From Nitrospirota bacterium (GTDB taxonomy: Bacteria; Nitrospirota; Thermodesulfovibrionia; Thermodesulfovibrionales; Dissulfurispiraceae), in contig CAWBMP010000005.1 of NCBI GenBank assembly GCA_963790025.1, forward strand, positions 480,001 through 544,000: 64,000 bases of DNA, read 5' to 3'. Shown piece by piece: positions 26,901 through 35,900 of the stretch. Numbering within the stretch: position 1 is the stretch's first letter; each line of letters begins with the position of its first letter. Made by a program: the position numbers.

Positions 26901-29900
26901 GAAGCACTCAAATATACCGGACTATTGTTTACCATAGCAATAGTTTTTATTATATTATCACGGTATTGTAAAAGCAATTATGCCTGCACAGACCCTAAAA
27001 TTGGTTCTTCCGCAGAGTTGCATTTTCCGGAAATGACGCTTTGCTTATCTTTCTCGTATCTGTTCCGCGGTAATTCCCTGCTCTCAGGAGGGCGATAAAA
27101 TTTTCGGGAGTCACTCGGTCAGAGAATTCCGTATAACACAGGCCTACGCCCCTGGAGTCGTGGGCATCTGAGCCGCCCGTATAGGGCAAACGTAAAGCTG
27201 TTGCGGTTTTAATGGCCTGCATATTAAAAGAATAAATATTACAGCCATTGTGGCCCTCGACGGCGCATAGGCCATCTATCCTCTTTATGACATCACCAAG
27301 GCTGTTAATTCCCCGGTATGGATGCGCTGGAATGACCACGCCTCCGTGTCGATTCACAGTTCGTAAAATTTCCGTTATGGGCAAATGCTTTGAAAGCAGG
27401 TTGTCTGTATTGACCCCGAAGATCAAACAGTGCCCTTCCTCGGCAGAAAACTCAACGCCGCGAAACACGAGGACCTGTTCCTTGTATCTTTCCCGCAGCA
27501 CTTCGACAGGCTCCGAAGCCTCATAGGAATAATGTTCGGTGAAAGCTATTCCATGCAGTCCAATCTTTATGGCTTGCAGAATCAATTCTTCAGGGTCTGC
27601 ATCGGAGTCTCCACTTGCCCACGAGTGAACATGAACGTCTACATTGAATCCCATTATTTAAATAATACACCAGAGGTAAAGGAAAAGGTAAATGATATTA
27701 CAAAAGTGCTTTACGACGTAATTATCTTGAAACTGTTATTGTATTGTCATATAATCAATACTATAAAGGATGACTATGGATATATATATTGCGCGACAGC
27801 CTATCCTGGACAGAAACAAAGCACTGTTTGCATATGAATTGCTCTTTCGGGACGGGTTGTCCAATTATTTTCCGGAAATAGACGGCGATACCGCTACTTC
27901 AAAAGTACTTTCCGGCAGTTTTCTGACTATGGGCATCAATAATATTACCGGAGGGAAAAAGGCATTCGTTAATTTTACGGAGAACCTTTTAACGTCAGAT
28001 ATTCCTTTTATGTTTTCGCGCGAGTCAACCGTGGTGGAAATCCTGGAAGACGTCATCCCGAGTAAGCATGTTTTGGAATCTTGCAGAAAATTATCTTCAG
28101 CCGGGTATTGTTTGGCCCTTGATGACTTTCTTTTCAATACTGGAAGACAATCGTTCATGAATCTTGTAAACATTGTTAAAATAGATTTCCGCTCGATACC
28201 TATGGACGAGATAAAAAAAATGATGACTAATGCCGAACTTGGTGGAATAAAGTTTCTTGCGGAGAAAATCGAAACAAATGAAGAGTTCAGGGCGGCGTTC
28301 GATATGGGCTTTGAATATTTTCAGGGCTACTTCTTCAGCGAGCCTGAGGTCATGAGGGGTAAGGAACTCGGCAGCACCACCATACAGATACTGGACCTGA
28401 TTGTTGAAGTGAACAAGGAGACTGCCGACCTGGACAAACTCAACGATATCATTGAGCGTGATGTTTCTCTTTCATACAAACTTCTCCGATATGTCAACTC
28501 AGCTTGCATGAAAAGGAGGACCGAAATCTCTTCGATAAGGAAGGCCATAATGATTATAGGTCTTGATGAGTTGAAGAAGTTGGTCTCATTGATCTCGCTG
28601 TCCAAGGTCGCTGTGGATAAACCTGACGAGCTGATTAAAAGATCGTGCATAAAGGCGAGGTTTTGTGAAAAACTGGGCCATGAAAGCGCCAGCCAGATAA
28701 AAAACGTACTGTTCCTGCTCGGGCTTTTTGCTCATATAGATGGCATACTGGACCAACCGATGAAAGAGATCATGGAAAAAATACCCATCTCAAAGATCAT
28801 CGTGGATGCATTGGTGAATGGCGTTGGAGAGGCGATACCTTATTTAAGGCTGGCTGAATGTTATGAAATGGGGGAGTGGGAGGACGTTAAGAAATATGCC
28901 GCTCAAACCTGTGTAGATGAGGGCGTGATCCCGGTCCTTTATGTTGAGGCCTGCAAATGGGCCGACGAATTTACGCTTTAGACCGGTCTTCGGTCTCAAT
29001 TTGCTCGTTGAGATTAAGGTTCCGGCGTATTGCGATGACTTTTTCAATAGCCTCTCTGACGACCCGACGCACCTCGTCAAGCTGAAATGGTTTTGACACG
29101 CAGTAAAAAACTTCATGTTTAATGCTTTCGGCAACAAAATTGAGCGATCCATAGCCGGTGATCATGATTACCTGTGTATCAGGATGAAGTTCCCGACTGC
29201 ACGTCAATATTTCTATTCCGTCGACTTTTTCCATTTTTAAGTCCGTAAGCACCACATCGAAATGCTGTTCATAGAGCAGTTTAAGCGCGTTTTGTCCGCT
29301 CTGGGTGGCCGTGACGCTGTACCCTTCCTTTTTCATCACATGTTCGAGGTTGTTAAGTGCTATTTTTTCATCGTCAACTATCAATATTTTTGCATTGTTA
29401 TGCATTATTTTTGCTCCCTTCCTAAAAGCAGGTAGAGGCAAAGGCAGAGGTTAAGAAAAAAAAGGAATTAGTTTTTGTTCTTAACCTATACCTGTACCTT
29501 TGTTTGTATCTTTTGGTATGGGCAGGCGAATTAGAAATGTGGTACCGCTGCCTACACGGCTATCGACCGCAATGCAGCCGTCGTGTTCTAAAATAATTTC
29601 ATGTACAATGGACAACCCCAGCCCGGAACCCTGACCTACATCCTTTGTAGTGAAGAAGGGGTCAAACACCTTTGGCAGTATATCAGCGGGTATGCCAGGT
29701 CCGGTGTCCGATATTTCTATGTCAACGGTATCTTCCTCAAGAGTGCACTTGCCGTGGTATTTCAGGTAATTGTATATCTCCGGCTCCTCTTCTTCCAGTT
29801 TCTCTATTGCGCTCCGCTGCTGCGCCTTGATATAAAGTATACCCTCATCGAACATAGCTTGAAGGGCATTCTTGATAAGGTTAAGAAACACCTGCTGGAT

Positions 29901-32900: not shown

Positions 32901-35900
32901 TTATTCCAGGGAAGGGCGGCAAGGTAATGAATATACGTCAAACCGATAGAATATTCGGTGGTCGACGGACCTATCTTGGAAAGGCCATCAAGCTCCTGAA
33001 GAGCGATCTTCTCAACCTGCGGAGGCATGTGTGCTGCCGTGATGAGTTCCTCTAGTTCATCGAGCGCCGGGTCATGCTGATTCTGATCGTCATCGTCCTT
33101 TTTAAAGAATTTCATGGTCTTTCCGTAACAGGGGTCCAAGTCTTGTCGGGATTGCATGATCGCATCTTGGAACGCACCCTGAATTACATGTTTGTAGTGA
33201 GCTCATTGTCGTATTAATAGCCTCCTGACTTGAGTATTCCAGATGCCGCAACCAACAGTATCAGGACTTCTATAATTGCCAGTACACCGTACACTGTATC
33301 TTTCTTCCTGAAAAATACCGGGATGATTCTTATGTGGCAGAGAATAGTAACACCGGCCAGGAACGCGATACCGACAAAGTTTAGAAGATCGCCTTTGCTG
33401 ATCATGCTCAGACATAGCCATCCCGTATGCATATTGTTAGTCGCAATATATTGTTTTGCCGACATGCCCCAATATTTTGGCAGGTCATTTAAAGGAACAT
33501 GCGGGGCAAGAATACCGGTAAGATAAATGATAAAAGATACAAGTAATATGAGAAGGCCGGCCTGTATCCCTAACTTGAGTATGTTTTCATAAGCAAGCTG
33601 CTCTTCTGTTGCCCTTACTTTCCTATTCATTAATTTTCTCCTTTGACAGGATATTCTGCACATTGTCTGTTGTCAATTGTCAATGGCTCCTCTCATTACT
33701 CACTTCCAGATTTCAAGACCCTTAAGAAGCATTCTCGACCCGGCATACAGCAGCATGATGATAACGATATAACGTGCTGCCGCCGGCTGTGTTTTTGTCA
33801 GCACTTTCACCCCGACTATTGTGCCAAGTATAACGCCGATTATAGCCGGGACAACCATCATTAACAGTACTGCACCGCCGTTAATGTATATCCACGCCGC
33901 GGAAGTATCTGTGATAGAAAGCAACAGTTTGCTTGTTGCCACAGAAACTTTTAGAGGGGTCCCCATGATCATGTTGAGCACGCTGACATTCTCCCATCCT
34001 GAGCCGAGGCCAAACATGCCGGCTATGATACCGACTAGAATAAAGGTCACAAGTCCCTGCGGGGTCCTGTGTATCTGCCAGTTCATTGCCTGACCTGTTG
34101 ATGTTTTGTAATAAATACCGTTTATCCTAAGTGCCGTTGAAAGGGCATCAGGCTGTGTGACCCTCGGATGTGCCTTTTTTTTAGTTATAAGCATAATGCC
34201 GATAACCACAAGAACAGTTGCTCCGAGAGCGGTCTGTATTATATTGATTGGAAGCGTCAGCCCTATTACTGCTCCAGCAATCGCGCTCGCTGATGTTATT
34301 ACAGTTATCGGCAAAGACAGACGTAAATCCGCCATGCCAATTCTGAGCAATCCCGGACTGGTAGCCAAGGCCCCGGCCAATGTCACAAGAAGACCCGCAC
34401 CCCTCACAAAATCAAGATGGAACGGAAAAAAAACTCCGATTATGGGCACGAAAAGCATGCCGACTCCTATGCGGCCCAGTACGGCCAAGGTGCCCATTAA
34501 GAATGTCACTACAAAAAGCGCTAAGGTCCACACCCACCAAGGAACATTAGATGATGCAACTGCAGCAAGCTCCGAAGGTGCATCTGTCGATGCTGCAGCA
34601 AAGCCAGTCATTGCCCAAGCAACTAAAAAAATGGTTACAAGTAATATCAATAGTGCTGCGTAGCGTCTTCTCATAGCTCCAACCCTGCCTCCTTCCTTTT
34701 ATCGTATTAGTTCCAGTTTTTTTGGAATTTATATTTGTCGCCGGCCGTCTATATGAAACCTCCAGTTATTAATCCCGCTCCCAATTCCCTGAGCATATCT
34801 CTTCCAAAAAATTTTTGGCAACCCGAATATTCAGCTTCTCAATATATAATCCAGCAACTGCTGAATCACTTCTGTTTTTTTCGAGGAGATTCCTGGACAA
34901 CAATACATCATCAAAGCGGTGTTGTCATCTCACCCCAAGGATTATAACATGTAGGCTGAGTCAGATGCAGAGAATCTGGAATACAATTAAAATGGGCGGA
35001 GAACTGAGTTTGAAAAAGCAATTGTGTTTGCCTTTCGGTTACCTGCAAGCCAAAAGCCTTTATAGCGTTGCAATTTACATCACAGGGCTGTGTTTTGCAT
35101 CTAACAATATTTACCAATAAAAACAATACTATGACATAGGGACAATTTCATCCTGTTATATAATGCAACATTTGTTATTTTATCGGCATATGAGAAAATA
35201 ATGTTGAAACAAGGAGATATATTGTGGCATCGAAAATGCAATGTAATTAATAAATAAAACAAAATGCCAGCAAGGAGGAATAAAGATGAAATTATTTGAA
35301 AGGTTTGAAAGAATTATGATGGCGGCAGCTTTTGCGGAAGAGGGAGAGTTTGATACGGCACAGCAGATAATGAAAGAAGATGAGGCAAGGAAGGACCTTC
35401 GTCCCACGCAGAGGAAGCAACAGGATAAACGGCAGGAAATTAGAGCAGAATAACGAGGAGGAATAAAGATGAAATTATTTGAAAGGTTTGAAAGAATTAT
35501 GATGGCGGCAGCTTTTGCGGAAGAGGGAGAGTTTGATACGGCACAGCAGATAATGAAAGAAGATGAGGCAAGGAGGGACCTTCGTCCCACGCAGAGGAAA
35601 CAACAGGATAAACGGCAGGAATTAAGGGTGGAATAATTATGAAAGCAAGTTTTGAAACTTTGATGTCTGCTGTTACATTTGCCGAGTCAGGCGAGTTTGA
35701 TACGGCGCGTGAACTCATGAAGGATGGGAAACGGATATTGGTAGCGGTTGATACCGAAACTTCGGGCAACGGAATATTCAGCTATGCATCAAATATGTGC
35801 AAGAGAATAGGGGCAACTCTGGATGTTTTGTATAACGGCAGTCGTGTTGATGGAGAGTTTGCCAAGAAGTTAGCAAAACTTTTAGCGGATGGTATCAACT

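Follow-up and report, generated by a model that had tools for sequence, protein, structure and literature searches.

As a rule, regulated proteolysis by AAA+ proteases is under the control of separate adaptors or of modifications on the substrate, and the response regulators RssB and CpdR steer ClpXP in trans via two-component phosphorylation. A locus in a Nitrospirota genome raises the question of whether this kind of control may also be exerted from within the protease. In the window (the whole 64,000-nucleotide stretch of DNA analysed), a Lon-type protease, referred to here as REC-Lon, bears a receiver (REC) domain; whereas RssB and CpdR are separate adaptor proteins, this receiver is built into the protease polypeptide.

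Results

Domain organisation of REC-Lon

The gene and the parts of its product are located as follows.

31097..33115, minus strand: REC-Lon gene, 672 aa; Lon helical bundle, inserted receiver, AAA+ module, S16 protease
32777..33070, minus strand: residues 16-113, five helices corresponding to the LonA three-helix-bundle region before the AAA+ core (Thermus Lon 250-347), by alignment to 7p6u and 3m6a
32402..32767, minus strand: receiver, residues 117-238; D122/D123, phospho-acceptor D166 (codon 32618-32620), T194 and K216 present
31748..32392, minus strand: AAA+ module, residues 242-456; Walker A GPPGTGKT, Walker B D316/E317, conserved N366, R378 and R436, Lon lid
31103..31711, minus strand: protease domain (Lon_C), residues 469-671; S578 (DGPSAG) and K621

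The first-pass annotation had described a 672-aa LonA-type protease with a complete receiver and without the LON N domain, and both Pfam and the motifs agree with this description. Pfam assigned Response_reg to residues 118-227 (E 4.6e-32), AAA to 245-382, Lon_lid to 407-455 and Lon_C to 469-671 (E 2.4e-80), while the same search gave no match to LON_substr_bdg (PF02190) anywhere in the protein; GPPGTGKT, DGPSAG, LVIDDE, DVVISDIKMP and LAKPF were all found in the translation. The LonA equivalog TIGR00763 was matched in two stretches with 704.1 bits (cut-off 608.05), and LonA hexamers were the best Foldseek matches. The AF2 model has a pLDDT of 82.4 and a pTM of only 0.61 and does not give the placement of the receiver in a ring. 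An alternative upstream ATG at 33157 would yield 686 aa; the family alignment supports the start at M1 (MKFF) instead. When 30 full-length relatives from two phyla were aligned, D122, D123, D166, K216, the Walker A Lys/Thr, D316/E317, S578 and K621 proved invariant in 30/30, and T194 was kept in at least 90%. These data confirm, at the level of sequence, a LonA-derived protease whose ATPase and Ser-Lys protease motifs are intact. The genome also holds an ordinary LonA, which does have PF02190, and a LonC (LonC_helical, AAA_32, Lon_C), just as annotated before. Public records name REC-Lon plain endopeptidase La.

The receiver within the Lon scaffold

The receiver had been thought to stand in place of the N domain, and on this point the alignments lead to a different picture. 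The match to full-length Lon begins at residue 250 of Thermus Lon (7p6u): REC-Lon residues 17-114 align to the helical bundle that leads up to the AAA+ core (250-347), and residues 242-671 to 353-776. The LonA match splits cleanly around the receiver, so that the latter is an insertion into a roughly 5-residue linker of a retained Lon scaffold, past the helical bundle, the N domain and long helix being simply absent. Comparison with the LonA of the same genome (51% identity) gives a 126-residue insertion in REC-Lon. By these alignments, the long helix is deleted along with the globular N domain, and the receiver has entered the chain some 100 residues further on, where the bundle gives way to strand beta1/Walker A.

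In the AF2 model, the bundle is made of helices 16-28, 32-46, 53-67, 80-90 and 95-113, and the receiver helix alpha5 (220-238) leads almost directly into the AAA+ strand beta1 (244-248). The lengths of both receiver junctions are identical in 30/30 REC-Lon sequences, which counts in favour of a rigid coupling. Canonical LonA (Thermus 7p6u, Meiothermus 7fd4/4ypl, B. subtilis 3m6a, E. coli 6u5z) shares the bundle, the AAA+ module, the lid and the S16 Ser-Lys protease; REC-Lon differs in being devoid of PF02190 and the long helix and in bearing the 126-residue receiver between bundle and beta1. It corresponds to laboratory delta-N Lon constructs, which are poor protein degraders, plus a receiver; deletion of residues 1-243 severely impairs MtaLon on Ig2 and alpha-casein (PMC8519571).

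The kinase, the receiver-only ORF and the sigma-54 activator

The two-component genes that go with REC-Lon are located as follows.

29481..31004, minus strand: histidine kinase, 507 aa, the next gene after REC-Lon; HAMP, HisKA, HATPase_c
28971..29441, minus strand: receiver-only ORF, 156 aa from a TTG start, with an ATG 12 codons in
7771..9210, minus strand: sigma-54 response regulator, 479 aa, full length; REC, Sigma54_activat, HTH_8

The HAMP histidine kinase reported next downstream on the same strand is indeed there. Two hydrophobic segments around about 135 aa without a family match precede its HAMP, HisKA and HATPase_c domains; it is AtoS/ZraS-like and orthologous to the kinase adjoining REC-Lon in relatives. 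The single-domain receiver noted after it does exist as a receiver-only ORF on the same strand, but it is a partial copy of the sigma-54 activator, 78% identical to residues 20-161 of the regulator at 7771..9210. It comprises the activator's receiver and linker with the catalytic residues intact, and is a lineage-specific, truncated paralogue. The full-length regulator, in turn, shares 89% identity with the activator encoded after REC-Lon and the kinase in a same-genus genome, where the full order REC-Lon, kinase, sigma-54 activator is found. It appears to be the displaced third component, 20 kb from the REC-Lon operon; the protease-kinase order is present in our genome, and the third gene of the operon represents the regulator's receiver part only.

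The best paralogue of the REC-Lon receiver in the genome is that of the cognate sigma-54 activator (52% identity). A quick tree calculated for 113 receivers puts those of REC-Lon and of the activators into one set of 47, albeit with weak support (81-85). Common to both groups are A127, N130, H133 and K137 in alpha1 and K219, L220 and R224 in beta5-alpha5, present at 77-100% in both groups vs. 0-18% in 67 other receivers. Such sharing of kinase-docking residues that are rare in the genome's other receivers is consistent with a single kinase that drives transcription in parallel with proteolysis. On the alpha4-beta5-alpha5 face, A197, A202, A205, G209, K216, P217 and R224 are invariant in the 30 relatives. 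The closest solved receivers are those of NtrC1 (1zy2, 1ny5) and DctD (1qkk, 1l5y), and AtoC is the closest NCBIfam receiver match. Like sigma-54 activators of the NtrC1/DctD/AtoC type, REC-Lon has its receiver directly before an AAA+ domain; unlike them, its AAA+ domain is of the Lon type and fused to a protease, the receiver is internal instead of N-terminal, and there is neither a sigma-54 interaction domain nor a DNA-binding domain.

Spread of the family and its known module

When repeated, the homologue search scored 8000 proteins and again placed 4271 of them at E<=1e-40; the best 120 listed of these 4271 all bear PF00072 together with Lon domains. The family was found in 63/401 sampled Nitrospirota genomes (about 16%), and full-coverage homologues in 45/401 sampled Thermodesulfobacteriota (about 11%); it is common in sulfur-cycling anaerobes. 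The orthologous HAMP kinase is the next gene after REC-Lon in 15 of 20 phylum relatives, followed by the sigma-54 regulator in 14/20; a Usp-like neighbour occurs in 14 and TauE in 12 of the 20. At named loci, a HAMP kinase lies within the stretch examined in 6/7 cases and a sigma-54 regulator in 5/7.

The first-pass annotation had implied that this protein type is novel; both the type and its operon are, however, already in print as DVU3303-3305 of Desulfovibrio vulgaris, termed a "three-component system" in two articles (Rajeev 2011, PMC3333781; Trotter 2023, PMC10102598). As far as can be matched by descriptions (PMC3333781, Table S5), DVU3303 of Nitratidesulfovibrio vulgaris Hildenborough likewise combines a receiver and a truncated Lon in one polypeptide, with a histidine kinase and a sigma-54 regulator next and UspA-domain and membrane-protein neighbours, exactly the gene set of the REC-Lon relatives. 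The 2011 article states orthologues for Thermodesulfovibrio, describes the operon as induced under stress together with its kinase, and suggests that DVU3303 needs phosphorylation for protease activity (PMC3333781). DVU3303, DVU3304 and DVU3305 show cofitness above 0.9 (PMC10102598); insertions in the operon's first gene could produce such cofitness through polar effects. Neither the receiver insertion point nor the biochemistry of DVU3303 is given in the available parts of PMC3333781 or PMC10102598, and no biochemistry or experiment on any REC-Lon family member was found in the literature searched. REC-Lon is hence a real new instance of an already described, biochemically uncharacterised kind of protein, noted in Desulfovibrio in 2011. 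Unlike the DVU3303 module, that of our genome is split, the regulator lying 20 kb off with a receiver-only copy in its place, and the TauE/small-membrane pair is duplicated.

Neighbour genes and putative promoter elements

The genes flanking the two parts of the split module and the candidate control sites are listed below.

33214..33663, minus strand: small membrane protein of 149 aa, encoded immediately upstream of REC-Lon; paralogue at 3574..3990, plus strand
33700..34674, minus strand: TauE/SafE-family permease; paralogue at 2583..3557, plus strand; TauE genes accompany REC-Lon in relatives
35286..36064, plus strand: two 55-aa ORFs in tandem plus a 141-aa Usp-like ORF; homologues of the gene divergent from REC-Lon in relatives
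2583..4894, plus strand: a further set of TauE, small membrane protein and tandem-Usp genes, in convergent orientation to the sigma-54 regulator gene
35225..35240, plus strand: candidate sigma-54-like -24/-12 element TGGCATCGAAAATGCA, followed after 46 nt by the first 55-aa ORF
9250..9264, plus strand: ATTGCAAAAAGCAAC, one mismatch to the DVU3305 palindrome GTTGC-N5-GCAAC, about 40 nt upstream of the sigma-54 regulator start

The TauE/small-membrane pair within 2583..4894 is the closer orthologue of the pair in the same-genus relative. Two copies of the DVU3305 palindrome with two mismatches each lie upstream of TGGCATCGAAAATGCA, at 35067-35081 and 35155-35169; as regulatory sites, TGGCATCGAAAATGCA and these copies are suggestive only. 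At one mismatch, three palindromes of the DVU3305 type were found in the window vs. 2.04 expected, which is near chance. A motif scan detected neither a sigma-54 promoter nor a DVU3305-type site directly upstream of REC-Lon.

Discussion

The earlier proposal that REC-Lon is the output of a two-component system agrees with both its sequence and its synteny. We estimate at roughly 70% the probability that REC-Lon is an ATP-dependent serine protease set directly by two-component phosphotransfer, as the proteolytic output of a branched pathway. What the sequences themselves display is the domain architecture, the intact catalytic and phospho-acceptor residues, the conserved synteny and the docking residues common to the two receivers; we infer the phosphotransfer, the direction of its effect, the signal and the substrates. 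The membrane kinase (29481..31004) would sense envelope- or anion-related stress, a signal suggested by the conserved neighbours, which are TauE-type permeases and Usp proteins. It would phosphorylate D166 of REC-Lon as well as the paralogous receiver of the activator (7771..9210) and the receiver-only copy (28971..29441), and the sigma-54 activator would switch on the Usp/permease genes. The phosphorylated receiver, wedged between the bundle and the AAA+ core, may alter packing or assembly of the AAA+ ring such that proteolysis is turned on; this switching would resemble that of NtrC1/DctD-type receivers. Since REC-Lon has neither the long helix nor the globular N domain with which LonA captures substrates in general, its substrates are probably narrow and pathway-specific, not those of bulk quality control.

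A more far-reaching scenario is one that we hold only tentatively and at less than even odds: the receiver may have been copied from the neighbouring sigma-54 activator into a headless LonA, where the phosphorylated domain would replace the constitutive N-domain/long-helix platform and license ring assembly or pore access, so that one kinase would drive transcription and proteolysis in parallel. REC-Lon would then be the first case of an AAA+ protease that two-component phosphotransfer gates directly, and capture of the activator as a substrate through REC-REC contacts might add to this.

Such capture could also be the main function of the domain. The receiver would then be a recruitment module, whose phospho-dependent heterodimer with the activator or the receiver-only copy feeds the protease; phosphorylation would select the substrate, not the motor state, and the response would be self-limiting and timed. 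The two receiver families are mutually closest and have alpha1 and beta5-alpha5 surface residues in common, the alpha4-beta5-alpha5 face is highly conserved, and REC-Lon lacks the normal LonA substrate-binding parts, all of which would suit recruitment. Docking to one kinase explains the shared residues equally well, however, and the Desulfovibrio protease and activator mutants behave alike (cofitness above 0.9, PMC10102598), which is unexpected under recruitment unless the effect is polar; we regard this explanation as unlikely.

Similarly improbable, in our estimate, is that phosphorylation turns REC-Lon off, or that the unphosphorylated form is the active one, the kinase restraining proteolysis under stress. 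Receivers of AAA+ activators act negatively or positively, the sequence fixes no sign, and the short alpha5-to-beta1 link of the model could carry either effect; that phosphorylation means "on" is a guess by analogy. Nevertheless, the stress induction of the Desulfovibrio operon with its kinase (PMC3333781) fits better with the use of the protease during the response. The receivers of NtrC1 and DctD, the closest solved ones, are relieved by phosphorylation.

The least probable reading, and a very unlikely one, is that of a constitutive N-truncated Lon in which a structural pseudo-receiver stabilises the hexamer or a phosphate sink drains the kinase. The label endopeptidase La in public records would suit it, and the second, receiver-only copy in the genome could also be a sink. 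Pseudo-receivers usually lose the residues of phospho-acceptor chemistry, yet here the DD pair, D, T and K are invariant or nearly so in 30/30 relatives from two phyla, the docking residues are conserved, the junction lengths are fixed, and most genomes have the kinase gene right next to that of REC-Lon.

If direct control by phosphotransfer is true, a motor with its own phospho-receiver would provide a one-protein link from a sensor kinase to protein degradation. A genetically tractable family member exists in Desulfovibrio vulgaris, so that receiver gating of a Lon ring is directly testable. The window itself represents a natural variant of the module, in which the transcriptional branch appears uncoupled from the operon, with a receiver-only copy now occupying its position.

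Results

Two minus-strand genes occupy the interval 29481-33115, which the first-pass annotation had assigned to a LonA-type protease and an accompanying histidine kinase:

31097..33115, minus strand: ORF of 672 aa, the LonA-type protease with a built-in receiver domain (REC-Lon)
29481..31004, minus strand: ORF of 507 aa, kinase with HAMP, HisKA and HATPase_c domains (Pfam)

An alternative, longer ATG for REC-Lon lies at 33157; the family alignment begins at MKFF. The domain list described earlier was reproduced by Pfam, with Response_reg at residues 118-227 (E 4.6e-32), AAA at 245-382, Lon_lid at 407-455 and Lon_C at 469-671 (E 2.4e-80), and with LON_substr_bdg absent. 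A canonical LonA bearing PF02190 and a LonC were likewise found in the same genome. For the extracytoplasmic stretch of the kinase, no Pfam family was obtained even at E up to 10.

The receiver had been described as standing in place of the N domain. The alignment to solved structures showed instead an insertion, with the Lon match divided around the receiver: residues 17-114 correspond to Thermus Lon 250-347 and B. subtilis Lon 11-102, and residues 242-671 to Thermus Lon 353-776. Compared with the genome's own LonA (51% identity over aligned columns), REC-Lon carries a single extra block of 126 residues, located between '...ILEHLAVKSL' and 'RGSVLCFAGPPG'. Under the published nomenclature, as used in a section of PMC10643698, the parts of LonA are the N-terminal globular domain, the long helix, the three-helix bundle, the AAA+ module and the protease; taken with the split alignment, this indicates that the first two are missing from REC-Lon. 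The helical bundle is retained, and the short linker from it to strand beta1 houses the receiver. The N-terminus is therefore like that of the laboratory delta-N constructs mentioned in the same paper, namely MtaLon lacking 1-241 or 1-243 and EcoLon lacking 1-246. The degradation of Ig2 and alpha-casein was reported in part of PMC8519571 to be severely impaired in MtaLon lacking 1-243.

An AF2 model of REC-Lon built with 30 relatives in the alignment (mean pLDDT 82.4, pTM 0.61) predicts five helices within 16-113 and a receiver at 117-238 ending in a long alpha5 (220-238), which would lead through three low-confidence residues into beta1 (244-248). The top Foldseek matches of the model were LonA hexamers, and no structure with an inserted receiver was found among the matches. 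A predicted complex of two receiver copies (residues 112-241) scored 0.40 vs. a mark of 0.42 and was given no weight in either direction.

Conservation was evaluated by aligning 30 full-length relatives that share 48-82% identity with the window protein. Invariant in all 30 were D122, D123, D166 (the phospho-acceptor) and K216 of the receiver, the Walker A residues, D316/E317, N366, R378 and R436 of the AAA+ module, and S578 and K621 of the protease domain, while T194 of the receiver was kept in at least 90%. Both receiver junctions have identical length in 30/30 sequences, which speaks for a coupling under geometric constraint and against a floppy tether. REC-Lon scores 704 bits with TIGR00763, the NCBIfam LonA equivalog, exceeding the cut-off of 608 and thus accounting for its public name; no model specific for its architecture was found in the NCBIfam search. 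Homologues are publicly named 'endopeptidase La', 'ATP-dependent Lon protease' or 'response regulator'.

Distribution of the Family and Its Gene Neighbourhood

Repeating the homologue search gave the same outcome: of 8000 proteins scored, 4271 had E<=1e-40, and the best 120 of the 4271 all bear PF00072 together with the Lon domains. The prevalence was measured with a 200-residue query spanning both receiver junctions. In the organism's own phylum, an uninterrupted full-coverage match was present in 63 of the 401 sampled genomes (that of the window included), one per genome, and in two further genomes the match contained internal stops. The occurrence is patchy by family (e.g., 34/64, 9/14 and 7/34, but 0/75 and 0/28). 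Matches were also found in 46/401 sampled genomes of the phylum of Desulfobacter vibrioformis, 45 of them at full coverage. After clustering at 50% identity, about 20 representatives covered the bundle, the receiver and Walker A in one stretch. In a contig profile search with the N-terminal alignment, canonical Lon dominates, REC-Lon making up 7 of the best 80 loci kept; the named REC-Lon loci among the matches listed belong to Nitrospirota, Thermodesulfovibrionales, Desulfobacter, Syntrophobacter and 'delta proteobacterium' MAGs. One sampled genome with a full REC-Lon has a second, shorter match (G350:C11:7535-8125; 45% identity, spanning the whole junction query) in a 382-aa open frame.

At the seven named loci, Pfam revealed a HAMP kinase in 6/7, a sigma-54 NtrC-type regulator in 5/7 and a TauE permease in 4/7. 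A divergently transcribed gene, Usp-like or unassigned, adjoins REC-Lon in all seven; six of these neighbours form one family by mutual blastp, and those of loci L006 and L007 match the Usp-like ORF of the window. A further 20 loci from the phylum search, one of which duplicates a named locus, were screened by ORF calling and blastp.

Genes near REC-Lon in the further 20 loci
Orthologous kinase adjoining REC-Lon: 15/20
Sigma-54 regulator after that kinase: 14/20
More distant kinase/sigma-54 pair adjoining REC-Lon instead: 2/20
Homologue of the window's Usp-like ORF nearby: 14/20
TauE gene within the stretch: 12/20

Both locus sets therefore indicate that the usual unit comprises TauE, a small ORF and a Usp-like gene, divergent from REC-Lon, the kinase and the sigma-54 regulator. 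In a same-genus relative (G322), a +1 frameshift within the conserved EIRGHRRTY motif breaks the REC-Lon orthologue into two ORFs of 294 and 358 aa (L116 6794-6860); this may reflect a genuine pseudogene or an indel of the assembly. The kinase and the complete sigma-54 regulator at that locus are intact.

A Displaced Regulator and Its Partial Copy

The order of the three genes on one strand, as annotated earlier, was borne out. The third gene, though, proved not to be a single-domain receiver in its own right but a partial copy of the sigma-54 regulator, as judged by identity and a quick tree. The features concerned are:

28971..29441, minus strand: receiver-only ORF of 156 aa
7771..9210, minus strand: complete sigma-54 regulator (REC, Sigma54_activat, HTH_8)
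33214-34674, minus strand: TauE and small-membrane gene pair, copy 1
2583-3990, plus strand: TauE and small-membrane gene pair, copy 2
3992-4894: tandem-Usp gene

With the N-termini of two relatives' sigma-54 regulators, the 156-aa ORF shares 64% and 60% identity. Across the genome, the REC-Lon receiver has its best paralogue in the regulator encoded within the window itself, which is 89% identical to the same-genus regulator that follows REC-Lon and the kinase. Its residues 20-161, i.e., the receiver and linker up to the domain boundary, are 78% identical to the 156-aa ORF. In the tree the ORF is sister to its own genome's regulator (support 90), the pair lies within a trio including the same-genus orthologue (support 99), and the branch of the ORF is the longer one (0.18 vs. 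0.028). The identities and the tree thus identify the 156-aa ORF as a partial duplicate, specific to this lineage, that has stayed at the original site; the intact regulator, 20 kb off, has become an orphan.

Copy 2 of the permease pair is a closer orthologue of the same-genus pair than copy 1; the small membrane protein had just a sub-threshold DUF1634 match in Pfam at E up to 10. Copy 2 opens a second permease cluster (2583-7668, plus strand), convergent with the orphan regulator and encoding TauE, the small membrane protein, the tandem Usp, a GntR/UTRA regulator, a 427-aa TauE-family protein and a 236-aa ORF without a family. The approximately 18.5 kb between the two halves of the module (9749-27654) encode an AraC regulator, an aldo-keto reductase, a Zn-ADH, an FMN reductase, a CMD-family protein, a ferredoxin-nitroreductase, a 1254-aa CHASE-PAS hybrid kinase, a DUF2950/DUF3300 pair and a PHP protein, by appearance a redox-stress set, perhaps brought there by insertion or rearrangement. 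An EAL-HDOD gene (27770-28981, plus strand) is convergent with the 156-aa ORF, the ends overlapping by 11 nt; its EAL match is limited to positions 118-236 of the profile, the C-terminal half, and the protein is probably degenerate. In a same-family genome (G114; L118 1-2833), no sigma-54 regulator follows the kinase of REC-Lon, and a paralogous kinase/regulator pair lies 5 kb away; this may be a second case of the transcription branch being lost or displaced.

Receivers and Regulatory Sites

In phmmer searches, the receivers of the cognate sigma-54 regulators ranked directly below, and partly interleaved with, those of REC-Lon, outranking every other receiver of the genome. A quick tree of 113 receivers united 26 REC-Lon receivers, 19 cognate-regulator receivers and the 156-aa ORF in a set of 47 that includes a single long-branch receiver, the other 66 of 67 falling outside; the support for this set is weak (81-85). 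Seven positions in alpha1 and beta5-alpha5 (A127, N130, H133, K137, K219, L220 and R224) are common to both groups, the residues occurring in 77-100% of each vs. 0-18% of the other 67 receivers. These regions of a receiver dock onto the kinase. The pattern fits a kinase shared by REC-Lon and the sigma-54 regulator and, less strongly, a Lon receiver copied from that of the activator.

Directly upstream of REC-Lon, we found neither a sigma-54 element nor a palindrome of the type bound by DVU3305, the Desulfovibrio vulgaris counterpart of the regulator (GTTGCGATATGCAAC in Table S7 of PMC3333781). A promoter/terminator scan of 28500-35500 was at chance (10 found vs. 11.4 expected; 6 vs. 6.9), as was a sigma-54 consensus scan of the whole window (33 vs. 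32.3), where one match is of interest solely by its position:

35225-35240: sigma-54-like -24/-12 element, 46 nt ahead of the first 55-aa ORF heading the Usp-like genes

The stretch 56-160 nt upstream of this element includes two 2-mismatch palindromes; the window-wide rate of 0.61 per kb predicts about 0.37 in the 611-nt spacer. The orphan regulator is preceded, at about 40 nt, by a palindrome with 1 mismatch; such sites are near chance window-wide (3 vs. 2.04). The sites are weakly consistent with the Desulfovibrio regulon and not significant on their own.

The two tandem 55-aa ORFs (35286-35453 and 35469-35636, plus strand) are near-identical and yielded no Pfam family at E up to 10. Their N-terminal FAEEGEFDTA motif recurs at the start of the 141-aa Usp-like ORF (35639-36064), and homologous short ORFs adjoin REC-Lon in relatives. 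No RNA run was found among the sequencing runs containing the locus; three metagenome DNA runs hold a share of its sequence words, and a fourth from the same study next to none.

Discussion

The REC-Lon architecture and its genomic module are already in print. Parts of the work of Rajeev et al. (PMC3333781) describe the DVU3303-DVU3304-DVU3305 module as stress-induced, with orthologues in Thermodesulfovibrio yellowstonii and others, and its Table S5 lists DVU_3303 as 'ATP-dependent protease La, truncation', DVU_3298 as a UspA-domain protein and DVU_3299 as a membrane protein. According to portions of Trotter et al. 2023 (PMC10102598), the pairwise cofitness of DVU3303-3305 exceeds 0.9 and a chlorate phenotype is linked to the transporter DVU3299; a section of the sigma-54 regulome paper (PMC4641369) gives DVU3305 the same targets. 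In the full texts searched, a set exclusive of subscription journals and outside response-regulator censuses, we found no biochemical or structural study of a REC-Lon-type protein, and a bioRxiv paper on REC family expansion does not mention Lon.

We consider it probable, at roughly 0.7, that REC-Lon is a protease gated by phosphorylation and serves as the second output of a branched two-component pathway. The kinase would pass phosphate both onto the receiver of the activator, which would switch on the Usp and permease genes, and onto D166 of REC-Lon. The phosphorylated receiver, which the helical bundle and the AAA+ core clamp on either side, would then alter ring assembly or pore access, thereby licensing the proteolysis of a narrow substrate set.

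Within this model, that phosphorylation activates rather than inhibits is a guess, with odds about even, made because of the analogy with NtrC1/DctD-type receivers, the closest solved relatives of the REC-Lon receiver, and because of the stress induction in Desulfovibrio; negative control by phosphorylation is the corresponding rival. REC-REC pairing might instead recruit the substrate to REC-Lon. The domain might also be a pseudo-receiver or a phosphate sink, a reading to be set beside the phospho-acceptor conserved throughout the alignment. The phosphorylation-gated protease is the reading we prefer.

REC-Lon is real, well conserved and mechanistically interesting. To what is already published, the window adds the precise insertion point of the receiver with its fixed junction lengths, putative docking residues common to this receiver and that of the partner regulator, and a natural variant in which the transcription branch has been displaced and a receiver-only copy stands in its place.
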